DNA of 54,313 nt from a virus (taxonomy: Duplodnaviria > Caudoviricetes), in IMG/VR virus record IMGVR_UViG_3300043596_000010, positions 1 to 54,313 of that record; one strand, given 5' to 3'. Below the pieces are notes generated by a model. It saw only the letters and a list, made by a program, of their open reading frames with translations. It searched no databases and was not told where the DNA came from. The position numbers and the translations under genes were made by a program. Below are positions 848-53,103 of this stretch, piece after piece (position 1 is the first letter of the stretch; each line of letters begins with the position of its first letter).

Positions 848-893
848 AAAAAAGCCCCACAGGTCGGATTAGCAACCTGTGGGGCTCTTTTAT
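848..893. terminator. Bidirectional intrinsic terminator between converging arms
   Basis: 12-bp stem AGCCCCACAGGT/ACCTGTGGGGCT flanked by A-tract and T-tract. Confidence 0.85.
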
Positions 894-896
894 TTC

Positions 897-1337
897 TTAG
901 CGTAGCACAGCTAACTTTTCTGTTAGCTTATCGCTCTTGATCTTGTCAAGATAAACTAGTAGATGCCTAGTAGCATCCATAGCGTGTCTAAGATTCTTAG
1001 TGTATAAGCCTAGGAGTTTGAGTTTATCGTTGTCCCAAGGCTTCATTACTGCGGGCTTTTGCATAATTAATGGGCAACCACTATATTGCGTGTAGAGTTC
1101 AATAACACCAATATAGTTCCTTGAAATTAATTGCACATTCTGTAGGTGTGGGCGATAGTCGAATTGCTCGCAGACAATAAGCTCAGGCTCGTTGTCATTT
1201 AACCAACGATATAGTAGCTTATGGTGATCGGGCGCTTCAAATTGGCCACAGGCATAGCTATTCTCAAGCGGCAAAGCCGTATCATAGCGACACCAGCCTG
1301 TGGTACCTCCCGGGTCAAAAGCTGCGATACGTGCCAT
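897..1337 (-). CDS. RuvC-like / RNase H-fold Holliday junction resolvase
   Basis: IAAFDPGGTTG, IVCEQF and HAMDA acidic motifs. Confidence 0.75.
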   Translation of the reverse strand: MARIAAFDPGGTTGWCRYDTALPLENSYACGQFEAPDHHKLLYRWLNDNEPELIVCEQFDYRPHLQNVQLISRNYIGVIELYTQYSGCPLIMQKPAVMKPWDNDKLKLLGLYTKNLRHAMDATRHLLVYLDKIKSDKLTEKLAVLR

Positions 1338-1469: not shown

Positions 1470-2246
1470 CTACCAGCCTTCCGGCTTTGGACCCATAATT
1501 GGGATGTACTTAAGGAATGTCGTAGGCATTGGCGTGGCATCAGGCGAGCTTAAGAAGGGTGACAAAGCATTTAACCAAACTAAGCCCTTCTGGTGATCTG
1601 GCCCAACAACCCAGTTCATATAGCTGTAGTCACCTTGTACTAAGAAGGTTGGGCGAGGCGTAGGGCCATCCTGGGCAACATGAAAGTGACTAGGAATCTG
1701 CATGGGTTCATCCTTCTTAGGGGTTAGAATTAACTTGTTGATTAAGGGCATGAATTCGCGGTCAAACTGAATCTTACGATCTGGGCCTGGGCAAGACTTA
1801 GCAACAGGTGTCCACTGACTTGGTGCCCCCCACATAGTATGAAAGCCTAAGCCAGAACCATCCCACTTTTCGCAACGCTTAAGTGGCACGGCATGTAATT
1901 TATGCGCCCAAATAGCAATTGCAGCCATTGAGTTCAATTGCTGTGGAGTCCACAGGCCGGCGGCTAATCCTGCTGTCTCAACGGAGATCGCAAAAGGATT
2001 AGCATGATAATTAGCATCAGCCCGTAAGTGTGTGTCTACAACCTGCGTAATTGCGCCGTCGAAGTCAATAAAGAAGTGCCACTCTAACCCATCGTGTGGT
2101 TGTGGAATTCCTTTAGTGGCATCTACGTGGAAGATAACCACACGAGGCGTGATAGCGCCTCCGGGTGTCCCTGCCGGTTTATATTCAATGCTTGTGGGCA
2201 AACTAATGCCCAACCCATTGAGGTCTGAAACCTTCATAATTGCCAT
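1470..2246 (-). CDS. N-acetylmuramoyl-L-alanine amidase (Amidase_2-type endolysin)
   Basis: VIFH, WHFFI..DG.I.Q, AISVET, GFH and KSCPG zinc-amidase motifs. Confidence 0.85.
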   Translation of the reverse strand: MAIMKVSDLNGLGISLPTSIEYKPAGTPGGAITPRVVIFHVDATKGIPQPHDGLEWHFFIDFDGAITQVVDTHLRADANYHANPFAISVETAGLAAGLWTPQQLNSMAAIAIWAHKLHAVPLKRCEKWDGSGLGFHTMWGAPSQWTPVAKSCPGPDRKIQFDREFMPLINKLILTPKKDEPMQIPSHFHVAQDGPTPRPTFLVQGDYSYMNWVVGPDHQKGLVWLNALSPFLSSPDATPMPTTFLKYIPIMGPKPEGW

Positions 2247-2552
2247 TTAGTGACCCTTGTCTTTGGTGAGCTTCTTACCACAAGAACTACAGATTGCCTT
2301 ACCTGTGGACGCAATAATATAAAGGTTGCCGATCTTAGTGTTGGTTTTATCACCGTCAATAAAGCTAACCTCCTCATCTTGATTGAGCTCACGCCCAAGA
2401 TGCTTTTGCATAACTAGCCGATGCTTGGTCTCCCATCGATGGGGATTGTCGGAAACCTTAACAAGAATATAGCCCTTTCGACTTACCGTCTCCGTACCGA
2501 CGGGCTTTGACGGCCTGCCGGGTTTCTTGGACAGGTGAGTAATTAGATCCAT
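2247..2552 (-). CDS. HNH-like protein (degenerate active site)
   Basis: GYILVK...HRLVMQKHLGREL...VSFIDGDKTN. Confidence 0.7.
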   Translation of the reverse strand: MDLITHLSKKPGRPSKPVGTETVSRKGYILVKVSDNPHRWETKHRLVMQKHLGRELNQDEEVSFIDGDKTNTKIGNLYIIASTGKAICSSCGKKLTKDKGH

Positions 2553-2850: not shown

Positions 2851-3077
2851 CTATCTGCAACTCGCACATAGTTTTTTCTCTCAATAATAGCCCTACGAGC
2901 ATTAGCTGCCTGTGGGAAAGTAGTTTCTTCATGCCCACTATGTAACGTATCCCAAGCATCTAGCATAACATCTATATTAGATGGGTGCAGACTAATAAAG
3001 GTTATTGAATCACCACAGTCGCACGCAAGTTTAACGCTGCTAGACCTAAATTTTCCAGCTTTCAATCTTACCTCCAA
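2847..3077 (-). CDS. Hypothetical Zn-binding protein (CxCG...HxGH)
   Basis: Paralog of adjacent ORF; 4-nt overlap. Confidence 0.65.
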   Translation of the reverse strand: MEVRLKAGKFRSSSVKLACDCGDSITFISLHPSNIDVMLDAWDTLHSGHEETTFPQAANARRAIIERKNYVRVADR

Positions 3078-3292: not shown

Positions 3293-3592
3293 TTAGCGGT
3301 TGATCTTTCGTGCCTGCCTAGCTCGCTTAGTGGCTGCACGATTAGCAACACGCTTAACAAGTAGCGACTGCTTGGTGCTAGTCCAAAACACAAATTCCTT
3401 TCTGTTAGGATCGTATTCCTTGAAGCCCTTTCTATGCTTCTTACGCATAGCAGCACGCTTACTGCCTGACGTGCTCTTACGCATTTCTACATGGCCAGTA
3501 ACGGGCTCCTCGTCCGGTACAGTTTCAGCCCATGCTTTAGCGTCTTCAATTGGATTGCTAGGCCCTGTGGGGAACCCGGTAAGCTCATCCAT
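3293..3592 (-). CDS. Hypothetical basic protein
   Basis: ORF with Lys/Arg-rich C-terminal half. Confidence 0.6.
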   Translation of the reverse strand: MDELTGFPTGPSNPIEDAKAWAETVPDEEPVTGHVEMRKSTSGSKRAAMRKKHRKGFKEYDPNRKEFVFWTSTKQSLLVKRVANRAATKRARQARKINR

Positions 3593-4137: not shown

Positions 4138-6494
4138 TATACCTCGGCCCATGATTTGTCACTCGACTTAATGTCGACGGCGAACGGAACATAATCAGAA
4201 AAGTGGCTACCCGATTCCATCATCATATCAATCATCAATCTTGAGACTTTTTCAACGTCGGCTTGCTTACACTCCACCATAATAGAATCGTGAACGAACA
4301 GCCGTATTGCAGCCCCAGCAGGTAAGGCCAGCCGTAATCCCATGCCGGCCGCAAGACAGATGTCACTACTAATAGACTGAGGCATAAAAGCCAAAGCTTC
4401 TTTTTCGATGTCGTGTTTGTTGTCATTGGTAATTAACTGGAATCTTCTATGTCGGCCAAAGGGTGTTACCAAATCCTGGTTAAGATCAATAACCTTGTGC
4501 TTAATACTCTTTTGCCACTTAACTAAGTTAGGCACCAACTTCATATACTTAAGCTGGAATGCCTTACCCTGCACAACCGTGAATGCATCTCCTACAACGC
4601 CCATCTTACGAGCGTCTTCGTTAACCTGATCAGTTAGCGTGCCAGGACCCATACCATAGTTGGAACCGTGAATGATTCGCTTCACAATCTGCCTGTGGGC
4701 CTTTGTCCAGTTTGGCCCAAAGATTTGTTCTGCGAATTCACCGAATACGTCCCTATGCTGATCGTTAAAGATTTCTGCCAAAAATCCTTCTTTAGCCAAG
4801 CATGCGACTGTTCGGTACTCAATCTGAGAAAAATCTGCCTGAACGAAGGCGTTTCCTTGCTCAGGGACAAACATACGCTTGATATTTGGTCCTCTGGGAA
4901 TGTTTTGGAGATTAGGATTGCGGCTTGATAACCTGCCACTAGTCGTACCGTGTAGGTTGTAAGTTGTATGGATTCGTCCCTGAAAGAGTCTTTTTTGAAT
5001 TCCTTTGATATACGTCCCATATTGCTTTTGCTCCTTGCGATACTCTAGCAGTAATCTACAAAAGACTCCAACCTCCTCCATATACTTATGCTTATTATCT
5101 ACTAATTTCTGCAACTGCTCCGCATCGGTAGTAGTAACATTTACATTAAAGTTACGTAATGCTGCGGTGACCTGCATGGGGCTACGTGGGTTGAAATCGC
5201 CACCAACATAGCGTTGTAATTCTAGCTCTAAGCTGTCTAGTAATTCAACGTACTCATTCCCAAGCTTGGTTAATGCGTCCGTATCAACCTTAATACCCTC
5301 ACGCTCAACGTGCATAAGCATGGTTGATGCGTCAAGTAAGAAATCTAATAGCTTCCGTAGATCCGGTTGAGCGTTGATCTCAGCTAATTGAATTTCTTCT
5401 ATGGCTCGGGTGTTAGAGCAATCGTAGGCATTGTAGTGAAAAAGCGTATCTGAATCAGTAGATCCAAAACTACCACTTCGACCACCACTATTGGATTTAA
5501 CCATATGCTTATACCGCTCGGCGCCCAAGAGTTCAGTAGACAGATACTCCAAACCATGAACGCCAGCACGTTCATCGAGTACATAGGATGCCAACATTGT
5601 ATCGTTATACAACTGTGCAGTGTCACTGATATGTGCCATTCCAGACAAGTCGAACTTGCCATTGTGACAAGTAATCTTCTTTGTCTCTAAGAGAGACTTA
5701 AGTTCTGCCTGAACCTGTGGATCACTACATGCAGGCTGCCCAATTACAGCCACCTTATGCTTATCATAGCTAATACCAATGCATAAGATTGGGTAGTGCA
5801 TTGCTTGAACAAAATCGGCATCTTTGTCATAGTCAGTTTCAATATCTATGACTAGATGATCGTACTTAGCTCCGATTTGCTTAAGTGCAGAAATAGCTAA
5901 GTTAGGTGTGGTGAATGCTCGCCATGCCGGCTCCTGCCAAATAGCAGTTTTGGTTACATTCACCAGCTTGGCGACGTCGTTAGCCAGGTGGGGGAAGCTG
6001 TCCGGTGCCCTAAGGCACGCCGCTGGGTGCAACGTAGGCACCACAGAGACGCCAGGGTATTGCTCAGCTTGCTTAGGCGGGCCAGCACGAAACTGAGTGA
6101 TTTTTACTTTTTCTTGAAAGACGGATGATGCCGCCGTGCCTCCGAGAGCAAGAATACGTTTGGGTTCCCTACTTGAGATTTCTTGGTGTAAACGCTTTGA
6201 ACATGCTTTGATAGCGAGTTTGCTAGGCACCCCGTTATCTTTAGGTCTACATAATACCACATTCGTAAGAAATGCTTCTTCACGGTTTAAGTTGTTTCCT
6301 TCTAGGACTGCATTGAGTAGTTGGCCGGACATACCAACAAATGGCTTACCACTCTTAATCTCATTAAATCCAGGTGCCTCACCAATAATAACTAAGTCAG
6401 CTTGTTCTGGGCCATAGCTAGGCACAAAGGCATGTTCTCTACCGTTATAAGGGCAATTCTCACAGTCTGCTAAAGGATGTTTATTTACCACCAA
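4137..6494 (-). CDS. polA: Family A DNA polymerase with 3'-5' exonuclease and N-terminal family-4 uracil-DNA glycosylase domain
   Basis: UDG: CENC, GEAPG, TNVVLCRP, HPAA; Exo: DIETD, HNGKFD, YNAYD; Pol: GRLSSRNPNLQNIP, DFSQIEYR, R...K...HG..YG, VHDS. Confidence 0.95.
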   Translation of the reverse strand: MVVNKHPLADCENCPYNGREHAFVPSYGPEQADLVIIGEAPGFNEIKSGKPFVGMSGQLLNAVLEGNNLNREEAFLTNVVLCRPKDNGVPSKLAIKACSKRLHQEISSREPKRILALGGTAASSVFQEKVKITQFRAGPPKQAEQYPGVSVVPTLHPAACLRAPDSFPHLANDVAKLVNVTKTAIWQEPAWRAFTTPNLAISALKQIGAKYDHLVIDIETDYDKDADFVQAMHYPILCIGISYDKHKVAVIGQPACSDPQVQAELKSLLETKKITCHNGKFDLSGMAHISDTAQLYNDTMLASYVLDERAGVHGLEYLSTELLGAERYKHMVKSNSGGRSGSFGSTDSDTLFHYNAYDCSNTRAIEEIQLAEINAQPDLRKLLDFLLDASTMLMHVEREGIKVDTDALTKLGNEYVELLDSLELELQRYVGGDFNPRSPMQVTAALRNFNVNVTTTDAEQLQKLVDNKHKYMEEVGVFCRLLLEYRKEQKQYGTYIKGIQKRLFQGRIHTTYNLHGTTSGRLSSRNPNLQNIPRGPNIKRMFVPEQGNAFVQADFSQIEYRTVACLAKEGFLAEIFNDQHRDVFGEFAEQIFGPNWTKAHRQIVKRIIHGSNYGMGPGTLTDQVNEDARKMGVVGDAFTVVQGKAFQLKYMKLVPNLVKWQKSIKHKVIDLNQDLVTPFGRHRRFQLITNDNKHDIEKEALAFMPQSISSDICLAAGMGLRLALPAGAAIRLFVHDSIMVECKQADVEKVSRLMIDMMMESGSHFSDYVPFAVDIKSSDKSWAEV

Positions 6495-6879
6495 TTAACT
6501 CCAATACGTCATGGTAGCTAATGGTACAAAGTTCTAATAGTAAACCAATATAATATTGATTTGTTGCGGTTGCTACGGCTACCTCAAACGGCGCAACTAT
6601 GGCTCTATAAGCATACCTAAGAGGAAACCGATCTAAATTATCAATATAAATTGTGCCATTAAAACCTAGTAATCCGTGCTCGAAGGCGCCTGCTGTATAA
6701 ACTCGCACACCGCGCTCTTGTGGAACTTTAGCTTTTAAAAATGCTGCGTCCAGTGTAGTAGCGCCTACCACAGCTATTGATTGCCGCAAAGAAGATAAAT
6801 GGCGTTCATTGTAAACTAGATTTACAATGGCTGTAGTCTTACCTTGCTGACGCCCCAAACATATATAGTTTTTAATCAT
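6481..6879 (-). CDS. Small P-loop-like protein
   Basis: GRQQGKTT Walker-A-like and IYIDN Walker-B-like motifs. Confidence 0.55.
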   Translation of the reverse strand: MIKNYICLGRQQGKTTAIVNLVYNERHLSSLRQSIAVVGATTLDAAFLKAKVPQERGVRVYTAGAFEHGLLGFNGTIYIDNLDRFPLRYAYRAIVAPFEVAVATATNQYYIGLLLELCTISYHDVLELIGGK

Positions 6880-9083
6880 TTTTCCGGGTCCTCATAGAAT
6901 GTAATTCGCTCCTGGCGGCCCTGTCCTACCCTTTCGATATAGAACCTCTGGTGTAAAGTATCAATAACGTCATCTGCCGCACGCTTGGTTAAACCAAACT
7001 GACGCATAATTTCGCCTCGCAGCATACCTGCCGGACCTGCCTTCTTAAGTGCTGATACAATCAATTCTAGCTGAGTTTCGTATGCATTCTTACCAATATT
7101 GGCCAGAACCTCTAACAAGTAATTACGCCAAATATCTACATAGAAGAAGGCATGCAGCATATCAAGTTCTGTGACCTCAATCTCATCGCTAACCATTCTA
7201 GATGCCGCAATTAATAGGGCAGCCTTTAATCCTGATTGGCAAAGCCGACTAACACATGGAAGCATAATTTCGCTATTGGCGTGATTCTGTGCAAACATTA
7301 ACATCTCAGCTTCATAGCGATTATATTCACGCCATGCGTTCGGCGTCATAGTGGCACTCCAAGATTTCTTGGTTGCTCCCACAGGCACGCCGTCTACAAC
7401 TATACTAACCATCGTATTCGAGTATCTTTTATGCATCTCTCTAAGCCGATTAAGTAGCGTATTCCTAACTGTTAGATCCTGCTCTGTAGGAGGTCCAATA
7501 GGCTTAACTTTAGTTACGTCTGCATCGGCAGTAATAAAGACAAACCGAGGAATAAAGCCGCTAGTGACTTGATCGTAGTTCAACAGCTTATAGACTTTAC
7601 TCTTAATACCGCCAGAGAAGATAATGAATACTGGGTTTCTTACAGTGACTGAGCGCTTAGACAAGACACGCTTCATTAACTTGCCGTCATACAGCTTAGT
7701 TAATGATTCGATCATACCTGATAGATAGTCTTTCTTAGCCACTGAATCTAAGAATCCTGTTAGCTCATCCTTAAGAAAGACTGAAGCCTTACCAGGTCTA
7801 ATCGACATTTCATCGAAAATGCCCTCAATGGTCCCATCGGTGCCTAAAATAGCTTCTGGCTCTAGCTCTTGCAGCATATCCATAGCCATGTCCATTGAGG
7901 TTGTTTTTCTTGTCAATGTTGTATCGGCAAGAATCATAAACCACAGGTTAGGCTGAACCGTTCCATGTGAGGCTGGAAGCTTAACGTCAGAAGCCATAAT
8001 GGCTGACAATATCGTAAAGGCACCCGCTTGGTGGTATTGTGGTGGTGCATCTACTACGCTAGCTGCCCACGTAATATAGTCTTCAATAATAGTATTATCA
8101 GATTCTACTGAAGCCCTCTCAAAATCAGTCAGTAGTGGCTTAACTTCGGAATTATTAATACTAATTCCTAAGCGCTGCTCTGCGTCAGATTCGTACTTAC
8201 GCTTAGCTCTAGCTATATCTTGCCAAAGAGCTTCAGGACCTCGATTATCCCTAGCGTACTTATTGCACTTTGCAGTTAAGCAAACACTAAAAACTTCTTC
8301 GGGAGTTAACCCATTTTCAAACAGGATGAGTTGCAGATTCCACAGGGCTGTGGACCAGTCGCCCTCTTTAGGCACATTGTTTAAGAGGATGTACGACATA
8401 GGCGTCAACGTGTGCCTGTGGCGCATTAGCACGTCATCGCTGGATTCTGGATGCAGCGGTATCTCACCAAGCGTTATTGCTACTTCCCGAGCTACATCCG
8501 GGTAAACATCAAAATCGCTCACAGAGAACGTATTGGCTGCAACACCAATTACTTCAACCATGGGTGCCGTTTGTTGGTTACCATATTTGAAGTTAGTGGT
8601 GTACGGAATACGCAGTAGCTGACTTAGATCCCAACCAGACTTATCTGCCCCAGATGGTAAATGAAAGTAAGCAATACGCTTAGCGATATGCTCAGCCTCT
8701 AGGGGCGGAATCGCATCTGCCAAACGCCATAGCGCCTGATAACGATCAGGCGAAGACTGAATGGTCAAAGATGGTGGAACCAATAAGTGATCTGGATTGC
8801 AGTAATCCAAGTCTGCCCAAATAGTTGGGCACGCAATCACATTCTCTTTAATTCGCTTAGGCGCACCTAAGATATGTGGGCAATACCACATATGATTACT
8901 ATGCTTATGCAGTGCAATATAAGCACATAATCTATCGGCCTGCCTAGGCCAATCAAAAAACTGTTGCTGCAAACTTATGCTAGGTGTATTGAATTTCCTA
9001 CGTGCTACGCAAACTATACCCTCTATATCACCATAAATTGCATCAAAGAATTGTCTGATTTGCGTAGCTTGAGTTGTTGTCAC
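6876..9083 (-). CDS. RepB-type primase fused to DUF3987-like ATPase/helicase domain
   Basis: WADLD, QSSPDRYQALW, LLRIPYTTNFKY; C-terminal TRKTT, FLKDE, SGFIPRF. Confidence 0.8.
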   Translation of the reverse strand: MTTTQATQIRQFFDAIYGDIEGIVCVARRKFNTPSISLQQQFFDWPRQADRLCAYIALHKHSNHMWYCPHILGAPKRIKENVIACPTIWADLDYCNPDHLLVPPSLTIQSSPDRYQALWRLADAIPPLEAEHIAKRIAYFHLPSGADKSGWDLSQLLRIPYTTNFKYGNQQTAPMVEVIGVAANTFSVSDFDVYPDVAREVAITLGEIPLHPESSDDVLMRHRHTLTPMSYILLNNVPKEGDWSTALWNLQLILFENGLTPEEVFSVCLTAKCNKYARDNRGPEALWQDIARAKRKYESDAEQRLGISINNSEVKPLLTDFERASVESDNTIIEDYITWAASVVDAPPQYHQAGAFTILSAIMASDVKLPASHGTVQPNLWFMILADTTLTRKTTSMDMAMDMLQELEPEAILGTDGTIEGIFDEMSIRPGKASVFLKDELTGFLDSVAKKDYLSGMIESLTKLYDGKLMKRVLSKRSVTVRNPVFIIFSGGIKSKVYKLLNYDQVTSGFIPRFVFITADADVTKVKPIGPPTEQDLTVRNTLLNRLREMHKRYSNTMVSIVVDGVPVGATKKSWSATMTPNAWREYNRYEAEMLMFAQNHANSEIMLPCVSRLCQSGLKAALLIAASRMVSDEIEVTELDMLHAFFYVDIWRNYLLEVLANIGKNAYETQLELIVSALKKAGPAGMLRGEIMRQFGLTKRAADDVIDTLHQRFYIERVGQGRQERITFYEDPEK

Positions 9084-9183: not shown

Positions 9184-9220
9184 GACCTGTGGGAACTATT
9201 TAGTTAGTGTGCCGATTTAA

Positions 9221-9683: not shown

Positions 9684-10619
9684 TTAGGTGTTTGTTATTA
9701 GTGTGTACAACTCAGCCATAGTTGGATCCATAATCGTTTCGGGCAGTAGCCCGTCCCGATCTTTAGCCATAACTGTAGCTGTAGCCTTCGTTCGGATAAC
9801 TCTATTACTAGTTCGCACCTTAGTTGCAGGCTTATTGCCCGTGCCAGGCTTTTCGGTAACTGTTTCCTTCATTGAATAGTAGAAAACGAAATCGAACATG
9901 CTTGGCACTTGCTTTCGCACCTTACCAGGAAAGTCTGGCTCAGTACGAAATGCCCCGGTACGCTTATTCTGAATGTCATCTCCGTGAGCAGTGACAATCA
10001 CATTACACCCTAACCGCTTTAGTTCCTTAATGACTGTACGCATTCGTACGAGCATGATGCCGTACTCACGCATACTAGGAACTTCTGGGTCTTCCATCTT
10101 AGGGTTATGGTCTACAACCTCAGCCATTAGCTTACTCATGCCAAGATTGTAAATCTCACCTCCTGTGTCCATGACTACTGTCTTATAGGGATTATTATTG
10201 CTAAGGTCATCAACGACCCGTCGCATTTGGTCCCAACCGAAAGACTTAATAGCCTGAACTTTGGAGTCACCCTTATATGCAGTATTCCTAACGTCGTCTA
10301 AATAGACGCCCTTAACGTCGGGATACTTGCGTCTAAGGCTTAGCACACCACCCTGTGCCGTGTCAAGGAAAAGGACAGGCGACATCTCGGGCACGCCGGC
10401 CGATGAACCAGCTAGAAAGGTCTTTCCAATACCACTATCTCCGAAAATAAGCATTGAGACTCTCTCAATACTCTTATCTACGGATTCCACAGGCAGGCCA
10501 CCAAGTAGTTCCTTAACATTGGCCTTAGTAATTGTAGGCTTAGGTGTTGGTGTATTAACTATCTTGCTATCAACTACAGGCTTACTTAGTAAACCACTAA
10601 GGTCGGGCTGTTCAGCCAT
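9684..10619 (-). CDS. AAA_24 / Sak4-like ATPase recombinase
   Basis: GDSGIGKT, TVVMDT, VIVTAH, MFDFV, AKDR. Confidence 0.8.
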   Translation of the reverse strand: MAEQPDLSGLLSKPVVDSKIVNTPTPKPTITKANVKELLGGLPVESVDKSIERVSMLIFGDSGIGKTFLAGSSAGVPEMSPVLFLDTAQGGVLSLRRKYPDVKGVYLDDVRNTAYKGDSKVQAIKSFGWDQMRRVVDDLSNNNPYKTVVMDTGGEIYNLGMSKLMAEVVDHNPKMEDPEVPSMREYGIMLVRMRTVIKELKRLGCNVIVTAHGDDIQNKRTGAFRTEPDFPGKVRKQVPSMFDFVFYYSMKETVTEKPGTGNKPATKVRTSNRVIRTKATATVMAKDRDGLLPETIMDPTMAELYTLITNT

Positions 10620-11147: not shown

Positions 11148-12320
11148 CTAATCACGTTTGTGAAAGTATCCTTCCAAATAGAAATTAGAATCTTCCCCAT
11201 TTAGCTTGTTCAAACATGCAGGTCTAAACTCACAGCTATAGCAGTTTGTGGCTTTATAGCCCGGATTGATATAGATACTTGGATTGTTGAGCATATCGAT
11301 TGCTTCCATAGCAATTTGCTTGGTTAGCAAATCTAATTGGCGCTGACTCCTAGGCACATTAGTACGTCGGATAAACGTACCCGGATTCAAACTAAGCCAC
11401 TGCAAGAATTCTTCATAGTCGGCAGGGTTTAGATTTCGTTCCTCAAGCGCCTTAAGGTACAACTCCTTACTCGTATTTTGGCTCTTGTTCTTCGACAGGC
11501 CAATCTTAACAGTACCATTCTTGAGCTCCCGGTGCAACTCCTGCGGGGGCTGTGGGAAGGACTTATGCATTTCCGTATAGTAGATACCCTTTACAGGGTA
11601 CCCTAATTGGTTAAGTGCCCAAGCGTAGCTACTAAGCTGCTCATCAAAATCAAGAAAGCCTAGATCGTCTTTGAACGTTGCAGCGGTCTTGCCATCGTCA
11701 ATATAGAAGTTACCTTGAGCATCCTTAAACACATTGTCGATGCGGCCACCAAACATAACAGGTTCATAGTCTGTGTATAAGCCCGGCATTCGATAATGCA
11801 GAATACCTGAACCACTAGTTTGTAAGCTACCTTTCAGATAAGTTACATGGTCGTAAACTTTATCTTCCGACAGCTTAACTTTAAACATATGCGGCAACAG
11901 GTAATTACGCCCGAACCAATCCGTGTTAATTACGATGGGAATATTAAATTCCATTTCGCATGCCACCGGGGTTAGGTGGGCATCGTTAATCTCGGACCAC
12001 TTAGCGAATTCCTTAAGCATCTCAATGCCTAAGACCTTCTGTGTAGTCCAAGAATCCATGATGCCTGTGCGTTCGTAGTAGTCCACAAACGTCAACCAGG
12101 ATTCCACAAAGGCTGCCTGAGCACGCTCTAGCTTCAGAGGTTCGTGCCAGCCTGTGGGGTCATACCACGCCTCCCGGCCAGCATGAATTGCTGTCCCGAA
12201 ATTATAGTATTCAGGAACTTCGTCAGCTTCCCAATTCTGTCGCATCTTGGATCCAAAGTCCCAAGCTTGACGACACTTCTTGAAAGCTAATCTATCATGA
12301 GTTCGGATTAAGATAGTCAT
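11148..12320 (-). CDS. Cas4/AddB-like PD-(D/E)XK exonuclease
   Basis: N-terminal Cys, FGTAIH, GRID, IDDGKT, QL..Y, C-terminal CxxCxxxxxC. Confidence 0.85.
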   Translation of the reverse strand: MTILIRTHDRLAFKKCRQAWDFGSKMRQNWEADEVPEYYNFGTAIHAGREAWYDPTGWHEPLKLERAQAAFVESWLTFVDYYERTGIMDSWTTQKVLGIEMLKEFAKWSEINDAHLTPVACEMEFNIPIVINTDWFGRNYLLPHMFKVKLSEDKVYDHVTYLKGSLQTSGSGILHYRMPGLYTDYEPVMFGGRIDNVFKDAQGNFYIDDGKTAATFKDDLGFLDFDEQLSSYAWALNQLGYPVKGIYYTEMHKSFPQPPQELHRELKNGTVKIGLSKNKSQNTSKELYLKALEERNLNPADYEEFLQWLSLNPGTFIRRTNVPRSQRQLDLLTKQIAMEAIDMLNNPSIYINPGYKATNCYSCEFRPACLNKLNGEDSNFYLEGYFHKRD

Positions 12321-12862: not shown

Positions 12863-13192
12863 TTAATCAACCGCCCTATGTTCTGTGGCATTAACAGATT
12901 CATTAAGACCTTTAAGATAACCATGCCCATAGCCTAAGTCATAAGCATCTTGCAGCGCCTGTGGGACCCATGCCCAATCACGTCGAAAGGATTGATCCTC
13001 AGGCTCGCCGCCATCCTCACCAAGAATTTCGACAGGCTTACCATCTTCGCAACGCACAAGTGCTCGAAGCCAATAATCTTCTTCGTAGTAGTTAGGACCC
13101 ATATCGTCTACATATTCTTGGCCATGAACAGCCAAGTCGGCTTCTTTAGGTGACAATAGCTTATAAGTAATATCCAATTTAAATCCTTTCAT
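12863..13192 (-). CDS. Hypothetical protein (DGGEPED..F.RD motif)
   Basis: Motif familiar from phage hypotheticals. Confidence 0.65.
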   Translation of the reverse strand: MKGFKLDITYKLLSPKEADLAVHGQEYVDDMGPNYYEEDYWLRALVRCEDGKPVEILGEDGGEPEDQSFRRDWAWVPQALQDAYDLGYGHGYLKGLNESVNATEHRAVD

Positions 13193-18542: not shown

Positions 18543-18823
18543 GTATCACCAAACTCCTGCTTAAGCTGCTCGATATTTCGCTTACCCGCACTAAAATCCT
18601 GTGCCGGAAACTGCTTAGGACCTGCCTGGCGAGTAGGAATGCTTCCGTCAGCACTAACCTGCACAACCCAACCAGTCTGGTAATGCCGGCAACGGTTTGC
18701 GTTATCACACTGAAAATGGTGCAACCTGTCACCGTAATTATTGGCGTTTGTAACCTGCAAAGCCTTACCGGGCTCCCCACAGGTTGGGCAGCGGCTAGCT
18801 TCTTCAAACTTGGTATCAGGCAT
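18539..18823 (-). CDS. Zinc-ribbon protein (start ATG 18823)
   Basis: CPTC...CDNANRC; GGAG SD. Confidence 0.65.
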   Translation of the reverse strand: MPDTKFEEASRCPTCGEPGKALQVTNANNYGDRLHHFQCDNANRCRHYQTGWVVQVSADGSIPTRQAGPKQFPAQDFSAGKRNIEQLKQEFGDT

Positions 18824-33520: not shown

Positions 33521-33865
33521 ATGACCGAACCATACTTAGGCAGTTTTAATGCATATCAAGAAGATACGCCATTATACTTAAGCGATAACGAATATCTAAT
33601 TGATTATGGCGAAGAATACGATCAAGAGCATGAATATTATAAAAAGTGGCAAGAGGCTAAAGACTACGACGAAAGTGGGCAACCTATGGCAACTGATCAC
33701 GGTCGAATTAGCGATGGTATTATGGTTGAGCTTAATGGCGAGCCAACCGTTAAGGGACCACAGGAGAATCTTGAAGAAGCCGAGCGAAACAAGCTGGCCA
33801 ACAAGGAAATGAAGGCGTTCCTAAAGGCACAAGAGCTTGAGGTTAAGGGACCTGCTGATAACTAA
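33521..33865 (+). CDS. Hypothetical acidic protein
   Basis: SD and TAATG coupling. Confidence 0.65.
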   Translation: MTEPYLGSFNAYQEDTPLYLSDNEYLIDYGEEYDQEHEYYKKWQEAKDYDESGQPMATDHGRISDGIMVELNGEPTVKGPQENLEEAERNKLANKEMKAFLKAQELEVKGPADN

Positions 33866-42155: not shown

Positions 42156-43186
42156 TGGTTCCTGAGATTGGTAATAACAAGCAGTTAAGCATTTACGATC
42201 CTGCCGGCAATAACAATGTCCACGTCGACCAGGTGCTAAGTAATATCAGCGTTGGTTGGCCTAACGGTGAGCTCATTGGCGATCAGCTTTTACCGTCGGT
42301 TCCTGTTAGCTTTCCTACCGGCAAGTACAGCATCTTTGGCCGTGAGTCTTGGGCTCTTGAGCCCGGTACGGATCTTCGTGGTCCTGGTGCTGAGGCTGTT
42401 GAGATTCCTGGTAGGGCTCGTTCGTTCGACTTCTACTACGCTGCCGAACATGCGCTTAAGATTGGCGTGACTGACGAGGAATATCAGGTTGCTGATGCGC
42501 CTTTGTCTCCTGAGGCAGATGCGGTTGAGCTTGTTACTGACAAGATTCTTCTTGCTCGTGAGCTTGCTATTAAGACCTTGGTTACTACTGCTGCCAACTA
42601 CCCAGGCACTCTAACTACTACACTTACTACTACTGCTTCTGGCACGTCTTGGGATTCTGGTAACTACGCTACTAGCGATCCTATTAAGAACGTTAAGGAT
42701 GGCTTTAGGGCCATGCACGCTCAGACGTTCATTCGACCTAACCTCGGTGTTTTCCCCTTCCAGGTTATGTCTCAGCTTGAGGACCATCCCGACTTCATTG
42801 CTCGTATTCAGTACACCACTGGTGGTGCTGTTACGCAGGACATCATGAAGACCCTGTTTGGCTTCAATGGTAAGATTCTGGTTCCTGGGCTTGGTTACAA
42901 CTCCGCTAACATGGGTCAGGCTGCTTCGGTTGGCTACCTGTGGGGCAAGGATGTTTGGTTCGGCTATGTTCCGCCTAAGGCTGGGCTAAACATTCCGGCT
43001 TTCGGCTATGAGTTCGTGCATAAGTATCCGACTACTGGGCTTACACAGGAAACCACTCGTTGGCGTGAAATGAGCCGCAAGCGTAATATGTTCCAGGTTG
43101 GCCGTCGTTATGATCTTAAGCTTGTTGCTCTTGATTCTAACGGCAAGTCTGTGGCTGGCTACCTCATCAAGAGTGCGGTTGTCTAA
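42155..43186 (+). CDS. Major capsid protein
   Basis: D..LSNIS.G, P.VPV, AGYLIK.AV terminus; position and size. Confidence 0.85.
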   Translation: MVPEIGNNKQLSIYDPAGNNNVHVDQVLSNISVGWPNGELIGDQLLPSVPVSFPTGKYSIFGRESWALEPGTDLRGPGAEAVEIPGRARSFDFYYAAEHALKIGVTDEEYQVADAPLSPEADAVELVTDKILLARELAIKTLVTTAANYPGTLTTTLTTTASGTSWDSGNYATSDPIKNVKDGFRAMHAQTFIRPNLGVFPFQVMSQLEDHPDFIARIQYTTGGAVTQDIMKTLFGFNGKILVPGLGYNSANMGQAASVGYLWGKDVWFGYVPPKAGLNIPAFGYEFVHKYPTTGLTQETTRWREMSRKRNMFQVGRRYDLKLVALDSNGKSVAGYLIKSAVV

Positions 43187-45212: not shown

Positions 45213-46150
45213 TGCCGCAAGAAATTCAGGCTGTAGGCTATATCGGTCTTGCTTTTGAGGCAACCGCCGGCACTTACACCGCTCCGACTAAGGGCTTTCC
45301 TATTGCGTCTGAGAGTCTTAAGTATTCAAATAACGATAAGACTCGGCGTTTGATTCGTGGTATCGCCGATGCATTAGGTCAGATTGCTGGGCCGTTTCAC
45401 ATTGAAGGCGACATCTCAATGGAGTTTCTGCCCGACGTGATTCCGTACTTTATGTACGCTAGTCGTAACACGGTCGTTAAGACCGGTACTAACCCGTACA
45501 CGTACGTTGGCACACCCGGGCATGCTGCTCTGCCTAACTCTGGTAGAACCCTTTCGATTACTGTTGTTCGTAATGGCGTTGCCTTTGGTTATACTGGCTG
45601 TGTTGTTAGTGGGCTTAGTGCTAACACCGATGATGGTGTGCTTATGGCCACTGCCAGCATTGTGGGCCGTAATGAAACCGATCAGTCCGTATTTGCTCAG
45701 ACCTATGTTAACCAGTTGCCATTTTCGCATGGCATGTACACCATTGGTGTGCCCACAGGTAGCACCGTTACCGATGTTGACACGTTTAGCTTTAGCTTAG
45801 CTGACGCTGCTGAGGCGCAGAACCGACTTACTAACACTCGGGCTGCTACCTTTGTTAAGTTTGGTGAGCGTGAGGTTACGCTTGCTATGACTAAGGATTT
45901 CACTGGGCGTACTGAGTACGACCAGTTTAAGGCACTTACGTCTAAGTCTGTGCGAGTTAAGGCTGACAACGGCGCTAGTGCTTCTGTACAGATTACGCTG
46001 CCTAACACCACCATGACTGCTTATGACATTTCTGGACTCTCCGGCCAAGGCGATCTTGTTATGGCTGACGTTACTTATCAGGGTTTTTACGATCCTACAA
46101 CTAGTAAGTCTTACGAAATCTCTGTTACAACGACTGAGAATATTACCTAA
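45212..46150 (+). CDS. Major tail tube protein
   Basis: IG.A.E...GT...PT, YTGC.V..L; precedes chaperone and tape measure. Confidence 0.82.
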   Translation: MPQEIQAVGYIGLAFEATAGTYTAPTKGFPIASESLKYSNNDKTRRLIRGIADALGQIAGPFHIEGDISMEFLPDVIPYFMYASRNTVVKTGTNPYTYVGTPGHAALPNSGRTLSITVVRNGVAFGYTGCVVSGLSANTDDGVLMATASIVGRNETDQSVFAQTYVNQLPFSHGMYTIGVPTGSTVTDVDTFSFSLADAAEAQNRLTNTRAATFVKFGEREVTLAMTKDFTGRTEYDQFKALTSKSVRVKADNGASASVQITLPNTTMTAYDISGLSGQGDLVMADVTYQGFYDPTTSKSYEISVTTTENIT

Positions 46151-49700: not shown

Positions 49701-49907
49701 AGTGTTCAGGATCTAGTCAATCCCCTAAGCACCATGACGGTTGATCCTCCCTCTGTGGGAGCGTTCGGTGTTAGTGGTAATAATGTAGCCTTAAATATTG
49801 CATCTGGCGCTATTGTTATTAATGTTGCTTCTGGTAATCCACAGGATATTGCCGACGCCGTAGAAGATAAGTTAGAGGACATTATGCGAGAGTTGAGTAT
49901 TCGATGA
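46734..49907 (+). CDS. Tape measure protein (likely ATG 46734)
   Basis: LVIRARDEAS start, TP901-type core, Trp-periodic repeats, SPSRVM. Confidence 0.92.
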   Translation: MPLNTREVLLVIRARDEASQIVGQVEGSFGGLSSQVATLQAANKALGLEKEALNFSTLGTTLNATKQEYRSMGDQLNLLQAQRANGVTGLDAEIDALRLSSAEHRVLIGDMENELETKTRAIQSTQLANSQAQQEIELRQQASKQTMAQGAALAGLGVVSTVVGASILKMYVNAIGAAIDYEEQSRKTLTQVSGFKASLKDIEDVGLQVAKEIPVPMEQIQAGLFDIFSSIPVHNMTEAKDILTEMSKAAVAGSTDIQTVGRSSFEIMNAFGLSAKDVNHILDVQFKLVQLGIGDYQEINTNIGRLAPTAEIAGQSIDTMAGSLAFMTRITGDGSTAVTSIQRAMESMTNPKVQQGLKEIGVNVADANGQFRPFKDIVDDVSKALSGLDPQQRAAAIFDLFKSTGSGSLNTRKFFMAAIENTQEFDDILSQTADNAGEMQKAFEIMADSPAAKIQRLKNDFSAASITLGNELMPAAIEVIDKFTQLVEWFGKLDPRVKEAIIGFGLLAGGFLVIMGVVLLLAGAFLILDGAVGLLELELAPVIAAFALAFIGIIALVAIGYLLYRNWGSITDAAGVLWDKTVQAWNAIYKAVSEAVAWSWDELKKFWAWLSGEFVDIWSRIKQSAVDAWNGIKDAIGNAWDWIIGKVTGGNLEKLFESLVTNVSMVFKELGQTIVSIVGYLESFGSYVGGILSPILGLFVNTVQAIIGIITDFAGILLDILIPAITGFGTIFMDVMNILQATVVAVWGIIQGVFQIALSIITFLIQGAVAVIIAVWDAFSGELLAIIKLAWDLITALLTTALTFMSNFISFFMNLIQGDWSGAWGNIQAMFHAAWDAMWAILQFFWGLIKSFFTTLGPNILSAVGNLAGTLVSKGSDLINGLWNGAKAIFWSVIGWFDSVPGMIVGILGDLSSYLYGLGADLINGLWDGIKAIWDRLTSWIGDAASGIADTVSSVLHVLSPSRVMMDIGVNVGKGFEIGLKKSFRAATDSVQDLVNPLSTMTVDPPSVGAFGVSGNNVALNIASGAIVINVASGNPQDIADAVEDKLEDIMRELSIR

Positions 49908-52003
49908 GCGTCGTTACATTAGTTAGGCCGAACACCTATGTTAACTCGTTCTTAAGTAACTGGAGCGATTGGCTTGTAGATACTGGCTCTGGAACACTTA
50001 TTGCTCGACTTACAGACAACTCCGACACTAGCCGTGCTAAGCAAGTAGTTAATGGTTTAGGGCTTCATGATAGAACCTTTGGTGGCTTTCAGATTTCAGG
50101 TTTTACTGTTCCACCTGGATCGTATATTGATAAGGTCCGCTATTCGGTACGCTATGATATTCAATATATCTCTAATGGCTTAACAGCTACACTAAACGGC
50201 CACATAACAAAGCTTGGCTATGCTGGCCCATTCGCTGGGCTAAGTAATATTGCAGCTAGTTGTACTGTTGCAAATGTTGGTACTACATCGCCAATTACCA
50301 CATTTACTAGTGGTTGGATTCCTCGCAACGGCGACAACAAGCTGTGGGTTCCGTCTGACTTAACTACAGATTATGCCTATTGGCTTAGTGCGTCCCCAAC
50401 TAGCGGCGCCGGGGATCTACAATTTAGAATTTATGATGTCTGGTTAGAGATCAGCACTAACACTTTCCCTAGTGTTAGTATCTCGCCTTTAGGAACGCTA
50501 ACCAACACTACAGCACCACTATTTACGTTTACTAATACTGACGCAGATGGCGATGCTATCGATCGGCTTGATTTTAAAATTTTCTCTTTGGCACAATATA
50601 CTGCACCGACATTCAGTCCAACAACTTCTGGTAGTTGGTATAGTGAATCTCGGGCTTTAAGTGTAGCTGCGGGCGGTCAGTTTACAGTAAGAACTGACAA
50701 TGCAAATCTATTTAATAGTACTAGCTATCGAATATATTATCGAATACGCCAACAGAAAGATCAGATACAACTCGATTGGCAATGGGCTGCATTCTCTATT
50801 CAACTAGATGCCCCTGTGGCGCCCACACTAACTGTGACGCCATCTAACTCCGATGCTAGCATGCAGTTTACTGTGACCAGTAAAGATAATATCCTATTAG
50901 CTGAAACGTCATCTGCTGAAGGTAGCTCAACGTTGGGTTGGGCTGCTGGGGCTAATACAACATTTAGCTCTGCTGCATCCGGCTTGTCTATGAACGGTAC
51001 TAGACTCTTCCAGCTAATCCGAGGTACTGGAACTGGTACTGCTAGTATTGTTAGTGCTCTAGCTAATGCCCCGGTCGTTGCACCTAGCACTCAGTATACG
51101 GCTATGGCGTGGTTTAGGGCTAATACAGTTACGAGATCATGTAGAATTATTATGACTTGGTATGATGCATCTGGTGCGGTTATCTCGACCGTTACAGGAA
51201 GCTCTGTTACTAACACCACAGGTGGGTGGACACAAGCTACTGCTCAAGGCACTTCGCCAAGCAATGCCGCTAAGGTTGGTTTAGAGCTTGATATTCTAGC
51301 TTGTGCTTCAGGAGAATTTCAGTTTATAGATCAGATTGGGGTTTTTCCTGGTAACACGTCATCTTGGTCTTTAGGTGGATATGCTGACGGATCTACCGTT
51401 TTTGTTCAATACTCACTCGATGGCGGTATTAATTGGCAGCCTATAAGAAATGGTAGCTTTGTTGGTTGGCCTACGCCGGCTAGAAGTGCAACTCTTAAGT
51501 GGTATGAGGCGCCACCTGGGCAACTAGTTAGTTATAGAGCCTTCGTAGAAGGTACATATGTTGGTGCTACAGTAATTGGTGCTATTACCGACACCATTAA
51601 TGCAACCTCTAATCCTACTGCTGGTAATGGTTGGTGGCTTATTGATCCACTAAATCCAACTAGTAATATGCTAATCAATATTATGAATGAGTCTTGGAAA
51701 CAAAATAGAAATAGAGAGCAAGCAGTCTATAAGGTTATGGGCCGTTCCGACCCTGTGGTTGTCTCCGATGTTGTACGCTTGCGTAAGGGATCATTCGATA
51801 TTGAATTCTTGGGCAATGCTGCATATAACTCATTTGAAGATATGTGGGAAACTAATAATATTCTTTTACTCAAGCGTATTTATTCTGATGTAGCTGAGCA
51901 AATGTATATAATGTTTGGCCAAGATTTGAACAAAGAGGAACAAAACTATAGCCCTACATATATTATTGCTAGTGTAGACTTTAACGAAGTTCTAGCGCCA
52001 TGA
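49904..52003 (+). CDS. Minor tail / distal tail protein with carbohydrate-binding-like insert
   Basis: Follows TMP; V.P..QYT..AW...W....A.SP.NA CBM-like block; YEAP.G; GR.DPVVVSDV. Confidence 0.7.
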   Translation: MSVVTLVRPNTYVNSFLSNWSDWLVDTGSGTLIARLTDNSDTSRAKQVVNGLGLHDRTFGGFQISGFTVPPGSYIDKVRYSVRYDIQYISNGLTATLNGHITKLGYAGPFAGLSNIAASCTVANVGTTSPITTFTSGWIPRNGDNKLWVPSDLTTDYAYWLSASPTSGAGDLQFRIYDVWLEISTNTFPSVSISPLGTLTNTTAPLFTFTNTDADGDAIDRLDFKIFSLAQYTAPTFSPTTSGSWYSESRALSVAAGGQFTVRTDNANLFNSTSYRIYYRIRQQKDQIQLDWQWAAFSIQLDAPVAPTLTVTPSNSDASMQFTVTSKDNILLAETSSAEGSSTLGWAAGANTTFSSAASGLSMNGTRLFQLIRGTGTGTASIVSALANAPVVAPSTQYTAMAWFRANTVTRSCRIIMTWYDASGAVISTVTGSSVTNTTGGWTQATAQGTSPSNAAKVGLELDILACASGEFQFIDQIGVFPGNTSSWSLGGYADGSTVFVQYSLDGGINWQPIRNGSFVGWPTPARSATLKWYEAPPGQLVSYRAFVEGTYVGATVIGAITDTINATSNPTAGNGWWLIDPLNPTSNMLINIMNESWKQNRNREQAVYKVMGRSDPVVVSDVVRLRKGSFDIEFLGNAAYNSFEDMWETNNILLLKRIYSDVAEQMYIMFGQDLNKEEQNYSPTYIIASVDFNEVLAP

Positions 52004-53103
52004 TTCCCGTTTCAGACGCTTTTTTAGCTGCGCTTAAGGTCAGTCATACTATAGCTACTGACGCCTTTATTTATAAAGATGGCATCTACTATGCACTGCC
52101 AATCCCATTGGTTGAAGCAAACGTCAATATCTCAGACCAATTAATACGCCGAGCGGTAACGCTAAGCTTTGTTGATCCCACAGGGGAGTTCACGCCGTCT
52201 GACGCTAGGGACTTATTTATGCCCTTAGGCACAGAGATAGTATTAGCTAGAGGCGTTAAGTTTGCGGATGGCACGCAGGAGCTATGCTCACTTGGGGTGT
52301 TTGGCTTTGCAGACGTTAAAATCTCTGATAGCGGCAGTTCTATAACCATTGATATTGATGGCTATGATCGTGGCCGGCGTATTCAACGTGCTAGAATGAA
52401 CAGAGATTATGGTATTGCGCTTGGCACTAACTACGTTGATGCTATTCAGGCATTGTTACACGACAGGTGGCCTGACATAGAAACTAACTTTCCTACTACC
52501 TCATATACTACTCCAAGCTTGTTACTTGAGCAAAGTAAAGATCCTTGGGAATTTGCTTATAATATGGCTCGAGATATTGGCTACGATTTGTTCTTTGATC
52601 GTAACGGTGTTTGTGTTATGAGCTCAACTATTAATACGGGTGCGCCGGTACTTGAGTTTACTGACGGCGTTGATGGCACACTGTTGAATCTAAGCAAGCG
52701 TTTCCAGAATGATGATGTCTATAGTCATGTTGTTGTTACAGGTGAAAACACAAACAACGTAGCCCCTGTTAGGGGCGAAGCGTTTGACGATAATCCCAAC
52801 TCGCCAACCTATTACCAAGGCCCGTTTGGCGACGTTACCTATTTCTATTCTAGTGGTCTAATCACAACCACTAACCAAGCGCTTGCTACTGCACGTAATA
52901 TGGTTCCTAAGGTGACAGGTATCCTTGAAGCGCTTGACTTTAATAGTTTAGTAAATCCGGCGTTGGCTTTGGGGGACAGAATTTCGGTAGTGCGTGATAA
53001 GATTGGCGTTAGTTCCATCTATAGCATTGAAAAGATTACTGTGCCATATACGCATGATAGAGGTATGTTTATTGTGTGTAAAAAGCGAACCTTGGATATG
53101 TAA
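52000..53103 (+). CDS. Baseplate hub / minor tail protein (DUF5047-like)
   Basis: VSDAFLAAL..SH, P.G.E....RG, LGVF, N.SPTY..GPFG.V..FYSS, NPAL..GD. Confidence 0.75.
   Translation: MIPVSDAFLAALKVSHTIATDAFIYKDGIYYALPIPLVEANVNISDQLIRRAVTLSFVDPTGEFTPSDARDLFMPLGTEIVLARGVKFADGTQELCSLGVFGFADVKISDSGSSITIDIDGYDRGRRIQRARMNRDYGIALGTNYVDAIQALLHDRWPDIETNFPTTSYTTPSLLLEQSKDPWEFAYNMARDIGYDLFFDRNGVCVMSSTINTGAPVLEFTDGVDGTLLNLSKRFQNDDVYSHVVVTGENTNNVAPVRGEAFDDNPNSPTYYQGPFGDVTYFYSSGLITTTNQALATARNMVPKVTGILEALDFNSLVNPALALGDRISVVRDKIGVSSIYSIEKITVPYTHDRGMFIVCKKRTLDM

Follow-up and report, generated by a model that had tools for sequence, protein, structure and literature searches.

Two sequence-specific primases are the closest described systems to the case reported here. 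In the available parts of the cited papers, RepB' initiates with dATP at T32, which lies within a GTG of ssiA (PMC8567376), and ORF904 of pRN1 primes only at GTG, starting at the base 5' of this triplet with a critical 3' base, on a minimal substrate ending in CTGTGC (PMC2034472). In the pRN1 enzyme, recognition of GTG on a C-T-G-T-G-C-T template lies with the helix-bundle domain (PMC13469122), and template words likewise fix the lagging-strand primer starts of T7 gp4 and DnaG (PMC2034472). Here, we describe an over-represented octamer, CCTGTGGG, in a phage genome, the complete IMG/VR virus record IMGVR_UViG_3300043596_000010 (54,313 bp, classed as linear and 86% complete; the whole record is called the window below), together with related words in other phages and the primase-helicase that might read them.

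Counts and placement of the octamer

The octamer, CCTGTGGG/CCCACAGG, occurred 34 times in the window, 20 times on the plus and 14 times on the minus strand, against an expectation of 1.17 and a maximum of 5 in 100 dinucleotide shuffles of the window; its reversed sequence, used as a control, occurred twice. The original prediction had given about one copy as the chance level and a total of at least 32. All 32 coordinates it listed were exact matches, and two copies, at 14630 and 17170 on the minus strand, had been overlooked. The enrichment persisted when codons were shuffled synonymously within each called open reading frame (ORF), preserving protein sequence and codon usage, with 23 in-ORF octamers against 2.44 ± 1.52 (maximum 10, 300 shuffles) and 44 copies of the heptamer CCTGTGG against 7.45 ± 2.5. 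At octamer positions 2-7, each single-base variant was found 0-3 times in the window, which is the background level. C at position 1 (34 copies) compared with 3, 5, and 6 for the remaining bases, and G at position 8 (34 copies) with 7, 6, and 10 (A, 7). The nested words CTGTGG, CCTGTGG, and CTGTGGG numbered 103, 57 (31 plus, 26 minus), and 48, respectively. These results confirm that the octamer array is real and sharp, and that it goes beyond protein coding.

Octamer copies occupied all six frame and sense classes (PVG, TCG, xLWx, PTG, AHR, and xPQx) as well as intergenic DNA; the use of different frames, both senses, and intergenic DNA had been noticed before. Eleven of the 34 lay outside ORFs or across ORF edges, the non-coding share of the window being only 9%, and the intergenic density of sites was about 5 times the coding density. 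The absence of clear polarity relative to transcription also held, with 12 sense and 11 antisense octamers in ORFs. Of three hairpin stems proposed earlier, those at 856-883 (z -6.8) and 25856-25875 (z -4.4) were recovered and the one at 32392 was not (z +0.66). The tandem duplication at 28481-28514 is real, with an 18-bp unit, and its two octamers are nested in a larger inverted repeat, GCACTACC...GGTAGTGC (window 28474-28525; DNA fold -13.8 kcal/mol, z -5.5).

The mean gap between words in the window was 1776 bp on the plus and 2053 bp on the minus strand. Per-strand spacing in the genomes of the phage family described below was more even than random (Stouffer z -6.4 for 52 strand sets, which are partly dependent, as are the genome pairs used below, because related genomes share sites), and it was also regular in cultured phages (z down to -4.0). 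Orientation alternated slightly in excess (Stouffer +2.4 for runs) and was interleaved in the window (36 runs vs 29.3 expected); runs and strand tests found no orientation switch point or polarity along the genome. The exact octamer and heptamer matches in the window are as follows.

856..863, minus: octamer CCTGTGGG, intergenic, left arm of hairpin 856-883
876..883, plus: octamer, intergenic, right arm of hairpin 856-883
1246..1252, minus: heptamer CCTGTGG, ORF 897-1337
1297..1303, plus: heptamer CCTGTGG, ORF 897-1337
1950..1956, minus: heptamer, endolysin ORF
2302..2308, plus: heptamer, HNH ORF
2909..2916, plus: octamer
3564..3571, plus: octamer, intergenic/ORF edge
4692..4699, plus: octamer, PolA
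5714..5720, plus: heptamer, PolA
7378..7385, minus: octamer, primase
7941..7947, minus: heptamer, primase
8340..8346, minus: heptamer, primase
8415..8421, plus: heptamer, primase
9186..9193, plus: octamer, intergenic
10487..10493, minus: heptamer, Sak4
12151..12158, plus: octamer, exonuclease
12958..12965, plus: octamer
14630..14637, minus: octamer, SNF2 helicase, overlooked earlier
14811..14817, plus: heptamer, SNF2 helicase
17170..17177, minus: octamer, overlooked earlier
17528..17535, plus: octamer, intergenic/ORF edge
18776..18783, minus: octamer
19637..19644, minus: octamer
20430..20437, plus: octamer, intergenic
21321..21328, minus: octamer
25191..25198, plus: octamer
25856..25863, plus: octamer, left arm of hairpin 25856-25875
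25869..25875, minus: heptamer, right arm of hairpin 25856-25875
26969..26976, minus: octamer
28481..28488, plus: octamer, unit 1 of the 18-bp tandem duplication
28499..28506, plus: octamer, unit 2 of the 18-bp tandem duplication
28629..28635, minus: heptamer
29004..29010, minus: heptamer, intergenic
29407..29414, minus: octamer, intergenic
30396..30403, plus: octamer
31410..31417, minus: octamer, divergent control region
32392..32399, plus: octamer, without hairpin
33758..33764, minus: heptamer
34159..34165, plus: heptamer
35182..35188, minus: heptamer
36333..36340, plus: octamer
36593..36600, minus: octamer
38095..38102, minus: octamer, TerL
38884..38891, plus: octamer, TerL
39010..39016, plus: heptamer, TerL
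39768..39775, plus: octamer, portal
40097..40104, plus: octamer, portal
42937..42944, plus: octamer, capsid gene, at a position matching sites in relatives L134 and L177
43874..43880, plus: heptamer
45752..45759, minus: octamer, tail tube
49839..49845, minus: heptamer, tape measure
50813..50819, plus: heptamer
51216..51222, minus: heptamer
51752..51758, plus: heptamer
52177..52184, minus: octamer
54147..54153, plus: heptamer

The tape-measure region (43880-50813) was poor in sites, with the largest plus-strand gap (6.9 kb) and a minus-strand gap of 4.1 kb within it. In addition, the octamer at 31410, between the divergent gene arms, is bordered by repeats of the TAGGGGTA type (window 31390-31440).

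The word in related and cultured phages

An alignment search with TerL homologs gave 80 loci from IMG/VR and seven from metagenome-assembled genomes (MAGs) at 48-60% identity; when the capsid protein and PolA were each used as the query, no close relatives were found in IMG/VR. The 87 loci (1.10 Mb, 34-63% guanine-plus-cytosine (GC) content) were pooled with the window left out, and a third-order Markov expectation was computed per locus. CCTGTGG was the most over-represented 7-mer (417 vs 127.9) and CCCTGTGG the top 8-mer (208 vs 20.0), and CCTGTGGG occurred 122 times vs 17.3. A conserved-peptide effect is excluded, because just 30 sites fell within TerL across 88 loci, few of them at common positions.

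Whole records of 25 relatives (32-60% GC) were retrieved for word ranking. CCTGTGG ranked 1-6 among 7-mers in 13 of the 25, at GC contents from 32% to 58%, and numbered 32 vs 2.8 in the relative with 32% GC. The preferred flank depended on the sub-lineage (CCTGTGGG, CCCTGTGGA, or CCCTGTGGT), and relatives seemingly without CCTGTGG carried variants, including CCTGTGA, CGTGTGG(AGT), CGTGTGGAGT, and CCGTGTGGG. These variants were assigned as follows.

Relative G017: CCTGTGA(G), 28 vs 6.9
Relatives G035, G018, G029, G033, and G034: C(C)GTGTGGAGT
Relative G039: CCGTGTGGG
Relative G030: GCGTGTGG
Relative G031: GTGTGG, 111 vs 50

In 22 of 26 family genomes, a word containing TGTG either headed the hexamers or ranked within the first three heptamers. 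Between relatives of about 70% nucleotide identity, compared in non-overlapping pairs, the word was kept at 36 of 56 aligned sites, compared with 431 of 3539 (12.2%) control heptamers 10-45 nt from the site (binomial p 8e-20); a wider set with overlapping pairs gave 40 of 74 sites vs 12.9% and 12 of 26 vs 15.1%. The word sites are under purifying selection. The shuffles and this conservation together uphold the earlier claim of a dispersed cis-signal unexplained by coding. The signal had been described as a property of a single genome and is instead a trait of the phage lineage and of other phages with the same primase.

Relatives L183 (5400-7400), L144 (5000-7900), and L197 carried a different repeat, AAATCGGACAT, of which L144 and L183 each had 23-24 copies in a locus of ~21 kb. 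Its copies are mostly intergenic, immediately upstream of AGGAG plus ATG. It was rejected as a version of the TGTG word and regarded as a separate phenomenon, an intergenic repeat adjacent to ribosome-binding sites that looks like a promoter or operator. A scan of viral contigs for the same-orientation pair pattern returned only collagen-like Gly-X-Y repeats, on one strand and at spacings in multiples of 9. The octamer is frequent in such collagen-like genes of unrelated viral contigs (L058-L060, L011-L012, and L018-L021), which makes them a trap for pattern scans.

The closest cultured phages infect Arthrobacter and Microbacterium and showed protein identities of 28-36%. In Arthrobacter phage Amigo, the gene order PolA, primase, RecA-like (Sak4), Cas4, and helicase is as in the window, and GTGTGC was the top hexamer (113 vs 34.9). 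Amigo had 52 SGTGTGCM sites (28 plus, 24 minus), Jasmine 3, and Laroye 4, and one host strain, Arthrobacter sp. ATCC 21022, serves all three. Jasmine carried CTGTGGG instead (47 vs 6.7 expected), as did its congener Adat (44 vs 6.4). Jasmine is a podovirus with 45.9% GC, the host having 63.4%; the term 'motif' occurs 0 times in the main text of the paper on Amigo, Jasmine, and Laroye (PMC5513430). CCCTGAA in Laroye was rejected as a signal and taken as a codon effect, because its copies are distributed 36 plus to 4 minus and read as GCC CTG AAG. Words of further phages are listed below.

Gordonia phage Nodigi: CGGTGTGG, 25 vs 2.1
Curtobacterium phage Shrew: GGTGTGGA, 48 vs 2.4
Pseudomonas syringae phage Almagne: GTGTGG, 74 vs 22.5
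Serratia phage Serbin: GTGTGG, 62 vs 22.6
Mycobacterium phage NoShow: GGTGTGG, 38 vs 11.8
Stenotrophomonas phage Jojan60: CCTGTGC, 52 vs 12.0
Uncultured phage MW202455: GTGTGG, 66 vs 25.0

GTGTGG as top hexamer or core is common to Nodigi, Shrew, Almagne, Serbin, and NoShow, and the TGTG core spans phages of Actinobacteria and Proteobacteria hosts. T precedes GTG in every word variant found (CCTGTGG, CGTGTGG, CCTGTGA, GTGTGC, and CCTGTGC). A literature search on the words themselves, or on primase recognition with over-representation in phages, returned no relevant paper.

The primase-helicase as a candidate reader of the word

The gene that we propose as the source of the word reader, and its domains, have the following positions in the window.

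6876..9083, minus: primase-helicase gene, 735-aa ORF, proposed word reader; phrog_10514 E 6e-102, Pfam DUF3987, weak RepB_primase
8499..9083, minus: archaeo-eukaryotic primase (AEP) catalytic domain, aa 1-195; VIA Z 19.3 to 6zp9 and Z 17.4 to 3h25, Foldseek 3h20
8169..8498, minus: helix-bundle domain, aa 196-305, candidate GTG reader; VIA Z 8.4 to pRN1 6gt7
7143..7850, minus: DUF3987 P-loop helicase part, aa 412-647; Pfam E 4.1e-16, Foldseek top matches MCM AAA+
6897..7085, minus: C-terminal helices and beta-hairpin, model residues ~603-665; winged-helix-like by secondary structure only

The full-length model (predicted local distance difference test, pLDDT, 87.5) comprised an alpha/beta domain, a helical bundle, an MCM-like P-loop ATPase, and a C-terminal winged-helix-like unit, and the model of the N-terminal 364 aa reached a pLDDT of 91.6. 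RepB' of RSF1010 (3h20) matched across both domains (Foldseek E 2.7e-10; VIA Z 17.6, 248 residues). The catalytic domain matched cyanophage S-2L PrimPol (6zp9; VIA Z 19.3, root-mean-square deviation 2.7, 173 aligned) and the RepB' catalytic domain on ssiA DNA (3h25; VIA Z 17.4), and model residues 196-303 matched the pRN1 helix-bundle domain (6gt7; VIA Z 8.4). The pRN1 catalytic domain (1ro2) gave a weaker match (Z 6.8), and NrS-1 (6a9w) gave Z 5.6. A sequence search of the PDB with the primase returned nothing below E 0.2. Relatives at 43-54% identity carried RepB_primase (PF16793) and DUF3987 (PF13148), PF16793 being a precomputed hit in most of the listed relatives at 43-50% identity. D91, D93, H141, and D147, which may belong to AEP motifs I-III, were invariant in 45 primase sequences. 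The window primase models as a RepB'/pRN1-type AEP plus helix-bundle domain. The public call of this gene, P0121 (671 aa), begins 64 codons inside the ORF (window 8892-9083, minus strand); relatives align across the longer N-terminus, which is part of the well-modelled AEP domain.

Pfam, PHROG, and ORF scans indicated that the window is the genome of a siphovirus with two divergent arms. The left arm, on the minus strand, encodes an endolysin amidase, two HNH endonucleases, PolA with a uracil-DNA-glycosylase (UDG)-superfamily domain, the primase-helicase, and DUF669, as well as Sak4, a PD-(D/E)XK exonuclease, an SNF2 helicase, DUF932, and two tRNAs. The right arm, on the plus strand, encodes TerL, a Mu-like portal, protease, and capsid, and tail genes. 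The UDG-superfamily domain is N-terminal in PolA (window 4137-6494, minus strand; aa 25-167, E 2.1e-28). Three further genes of this module are considered below as possible readers.

9684-10619: Sak4
11148-12320: PD-(D/E)XK exonuclease
13800-15188: SNF2 helicase

Co-occurrence was analyzed in 21 phages outside the family, with a primase homolog defined by tblastn E < 1e-4 to the window primase. Of the 14 phages with a primase homolog, 10 had a TGTG word as their first-ranked hexamer, compared with none of the 7 others (hypergeometric p 0.003). StAshley and Youna2 encode PolA, Sak4, and the exonuclease, and have neither a primase homolog nor a TGTG word. Among the interpretations offered in the original prediction, fold and co-occurrence favor a primase recognition site, and host Chi, DnaA titration, and stoperators are disfavored for reasons given in the next section. 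We give about an even chance to the reading that the phage's own RepB'/pRN1-type primase-helicase (window 6876-9083, minus strand) recognizes the words and starts synthesis at them. Both the identification of the primase as the reader and the choice of priming over helicase loading are inferences.

In such a mechanism, the helix-bundle domain would read GTG and its 3' flank on the single-stranded template, synthesis would begin at or beside the T of TGTG, and the enzyme would next copy the template CC that lies to the 5' side. A primase needing 7-8 specified bases would meet a chance site only every tens of kb, and selection would therefore have placed a site about every 1.8-2 kb on both strands. 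The word would drift along with the enzyme from lineage to lineage. Okazaki fragments are on the scale of 1-2 kb, and the mean gaps on both strands (1776/2053 bp) match this lagging-strand fragment size.

More tentatively, host-spanning phages with RepB'-like primase-helicases may write a lagging-strand priming map into their genomes, with word and enzyme co-evolving. Each lineage would possibly keep its own 6-9-nt word, [C/G][C/G]TGTG[G/C/A] and derivatives, at even spacing in 30-110 copies, and we suppose with similar caution that specificity switches from CCTGTGG to CGTGTGG, GTGTGC, and CTGTAAAGG, like a private replication code. As these enzymes make DNA-containing primers, the word could spread through the genome by error-tolerant priming itself, as a molecular drive rather than by selection alone.

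Several observations weigh against primase recognition. Four of the 26 family genomes have no TGTG word at the ranks given above. Four of the 14 primase-positive phages (Satis, Pan2, Shocker, and Clo-PEP-1) have no top TGTG word, Satis and Pan2 despite full-length primase homologs, and Clo-PEP-1 has merely a weak TGTGGA. Shocker (Microbacterium phage, MW507126.1, L333-L335) has dispersed copies of CTGTAAAGG (45 vs 1.8, 16 plus and 29 minus), which may be a derived version of the TGTG word. When a first-ranked hexamer or a top-three heptamer is counted, the contrast becomes 10 of 14 with primase vs 2 of 7 without, the two scorers being Krampus, whose 14 copies form clusters at two loci, and RDJL Phi 2, which has 9 copies. 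PolA tracks the word nearly as well (10 of 15 with PolA, 0 of 6 without; Pan2 has the primase and lacks both PolA and the word), and the replication module travels together as a whole. Within the family, the conserved genes all co-vary, and the primase was not singled out either by trees of 11 conserved proteins (3-4 main-word changes each) or by column tests of 12 proteins (0-3 perfectly separating alignment columns each). The Z of 8.4 for the helix bundle lies within the range common for helical bundles (under ~13), and the window primase scored 22.4 bits against RepB_primase PF16793, under the curated cut-off of 24.3 (E 1.2e-4). The flanking sequence required by RepB' and pRN1 is much shorter than, or very unlike, an 8-mer. 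The p-values are optimistic, since neither the genome pairs nor the strand sets are entirely independent.

Other repeats were also seen in the comparison phages. Krampus (Microbacterium phage, NC_047986.1) has ATTGTGG (14 vs 0.8) in two tight, iteron-like clusters (32269-32372 and 56226-56460) in both orientations. Youna2 (Weizmannia phage, OM293949.1) has dispersed CCTGCGG (21 vs 4.1, 4 plus and 17 minus), one base from CCTGTGG. Satis (Streptomyces phage, MH576962.1), a jumbo phage with 67% GC, has CCTAGGCC (22 vs 0.8), and Shocker additionally has TACCCTAA (15 vs 0.0).

Alternative readers and known systems

The same protein might act differently on the word, which would then mark double-stranded loading or 'mini-origin' sites, read for example by the C-terminal winged-helix-like end; the sites would be helicase entry points dispersed genome-wide instead of primer starts. 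Phage P4 alpha binds octamer iterons, the full-length model has a C-terminal helix-helix-helix-strand-strand unit after the MCM-like ATPase, and the co-occurrence with the primase gene fits equally well. However, the even per-strand spacing and the excess of alternation (Stouffer +2.4) point to strand-specific reading, and Jasmine, Nodigi, Shrew, Almagne, Serbin, and NoShow share only the N-terminal 17-47% of the primase, yet carry the word. We regard loading as unlikely.

Somewhat less probable still, the word might be the site of another phage DNA-binding protein (nucleoid-like, packaging, transcription factor, or stoperator-like), or a nick or modification target. The candidates are many, as 57 of the 69 ORFs given to one Pfam scan had no family, many of them small; two HNH endonucleases are present, and the higher intergenic density would suit such a protein. 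The only conserved unknowns, however, are encoded at window 897-1337 and 18539-18871, both are absent from most word-carrying outside phages, the word has no bias relative to transcription, and PHROG and Pfam scans of the window found no methyltransferase. Stoperators of cluster A mycobacteriophages are asymmetric sites oriented with transcription and bound by the immunity repressor. Stoperator-like sites, one of the earlier suggestions, are not supported, as orientation bias is lacking and no repressor or integrase was found among the 79 window ORFs given to Pfam or in the PHROG scans.

A Chi-like signal for the phage's own recombination or nuclease machine (exonuclease, Sak4, and SNF2), serving as a self mark or a trigger of recombination-dependent replication, appears improbable. 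It would suit a word that is short, sharp, dispersed, conserved, and even on each strand, and all 25 relatives carry the exonuclease, Sak4, and SNF2 genes where the contig allows. But the exonuclease and Sak4 occur without the word in StAshley and Youna2, Jasmine, Nodigi, and Shrew carry the word without a detectable exonuclease or Sak4 homolog, and orientation does not switch along the genome.

A signature that the phage took over from its host, be it Chi, a DNA uptake sequence (DUS), DnaA boxes, or a repair bias, is largely refuted and has very little probability: the sharpness and density of the word resemble those of Chi, DUS, and the uptake signal sequence (USS), and its inverted pairs make terminator-like hairpins as DUS do, but phages of one host strain (Amigo and Jasmine) differ in word, the same core crosses phyla, relatives range over 32-60% GC, and five MAGs holding relatives have the word at background density (e.g., 98 copies in 7 Mb, although binning of phage contigs is unreliable). 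MAGs with TerL relatives were assigned to Chitinophagaceae, Pedobacter, Saccharibacteria, SAR202, and UASB270, with no consistent host. The window DNA was present in only two sequencing runs, in both as Logan contigs and with the run marked as a possible source. DnaA boxes have a consensus of the type TTATCCACA, with which the word shares TGTGG only. Titration of DnaA, also proposed earlier, is not supported, given the preference for G at position 8 (34 vs 7 for A), the required CC prefix, and the variation of the word among relatives (CCTGTGA and GTGTGC).

If primase recognition is the correct reading, primase specificity would shape the sequence of entire phage genomes, down to synonymous sites and DNA between genes, and the recognition word of an uncharacterized primase could be read from its own genome. 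The phages would then provide a natural series of enzymes and sites for learning how helix-bundle domains read DNA, with clear versions in the cultured phages Jasmine, Adat, Amigo, Nodigi, Shrew, Almagne, Serbin, and Jojan60. Additionally, the word could serve as a marker for classifying replication modules of metagenomic phages and would constrain the recoding or engineering of such phages. Should the reader be another protein, a word that is conserved, specific to a lineage, spaced along each strand, and present in many phages still represents an undescribed cis-signal.

Among known systems, RepB' of RSF1010 is the best structural match, with the same architecture of AEP catalytic and helix-bundle domains. 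According to the accessible part of its description, it primes in a sequence-specific manner, beginning at the T within a GTG triplet, and the window word likewise has T-GTG. RepB' uses two 40-nt hairpin sites (ssiA and ssiB) in one origin and works in leading-strand mode only, whereas the window has a 7-8-nt word with no obligatory hairpin in 57 copies on both strands, and its enzyme is fused to a DUF3987 helicase. ORF904 of pRN1 resembles the window enzyme in carrying prim-pol, helix-bundle, and helicase domains in one chain. The available portion of the pRN1 work describes a strict need for GTG, reading by the helix bundle, a start 5' of GTG, and templates containing CTGTGC. Unlike the window protein, ORF904 belongs to an archaeal plasmid, and the same portion reports no genome-wide enrichment of GTG; a trinucleotide is common by chance, and therefore no enrichment would be needed.

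The sites of T7 gp4 and DnaG are comparable as template words setting primer starts, the role proposed here, but these enzymes are Toprim/zinc-finger primases whose trinucleotide cores are frequent by chance. Chi, the DUS of Neisseria, and the USS of Pasteurellaceae are sharp 8-10-mers present hundreds of times, above chance, in genic and intergenic DNA, with inverted pairs as hairpins, and the window word resembles them in its sharpness, genic and intergenic placement, and hairpin-forming inverted pairs. However, these signals are properties of bacterial genomes read by a host machine, whereas the window word characterizes a lineage of phages, is not the same in all phages of a single host, and lacks replication-linked polarity.

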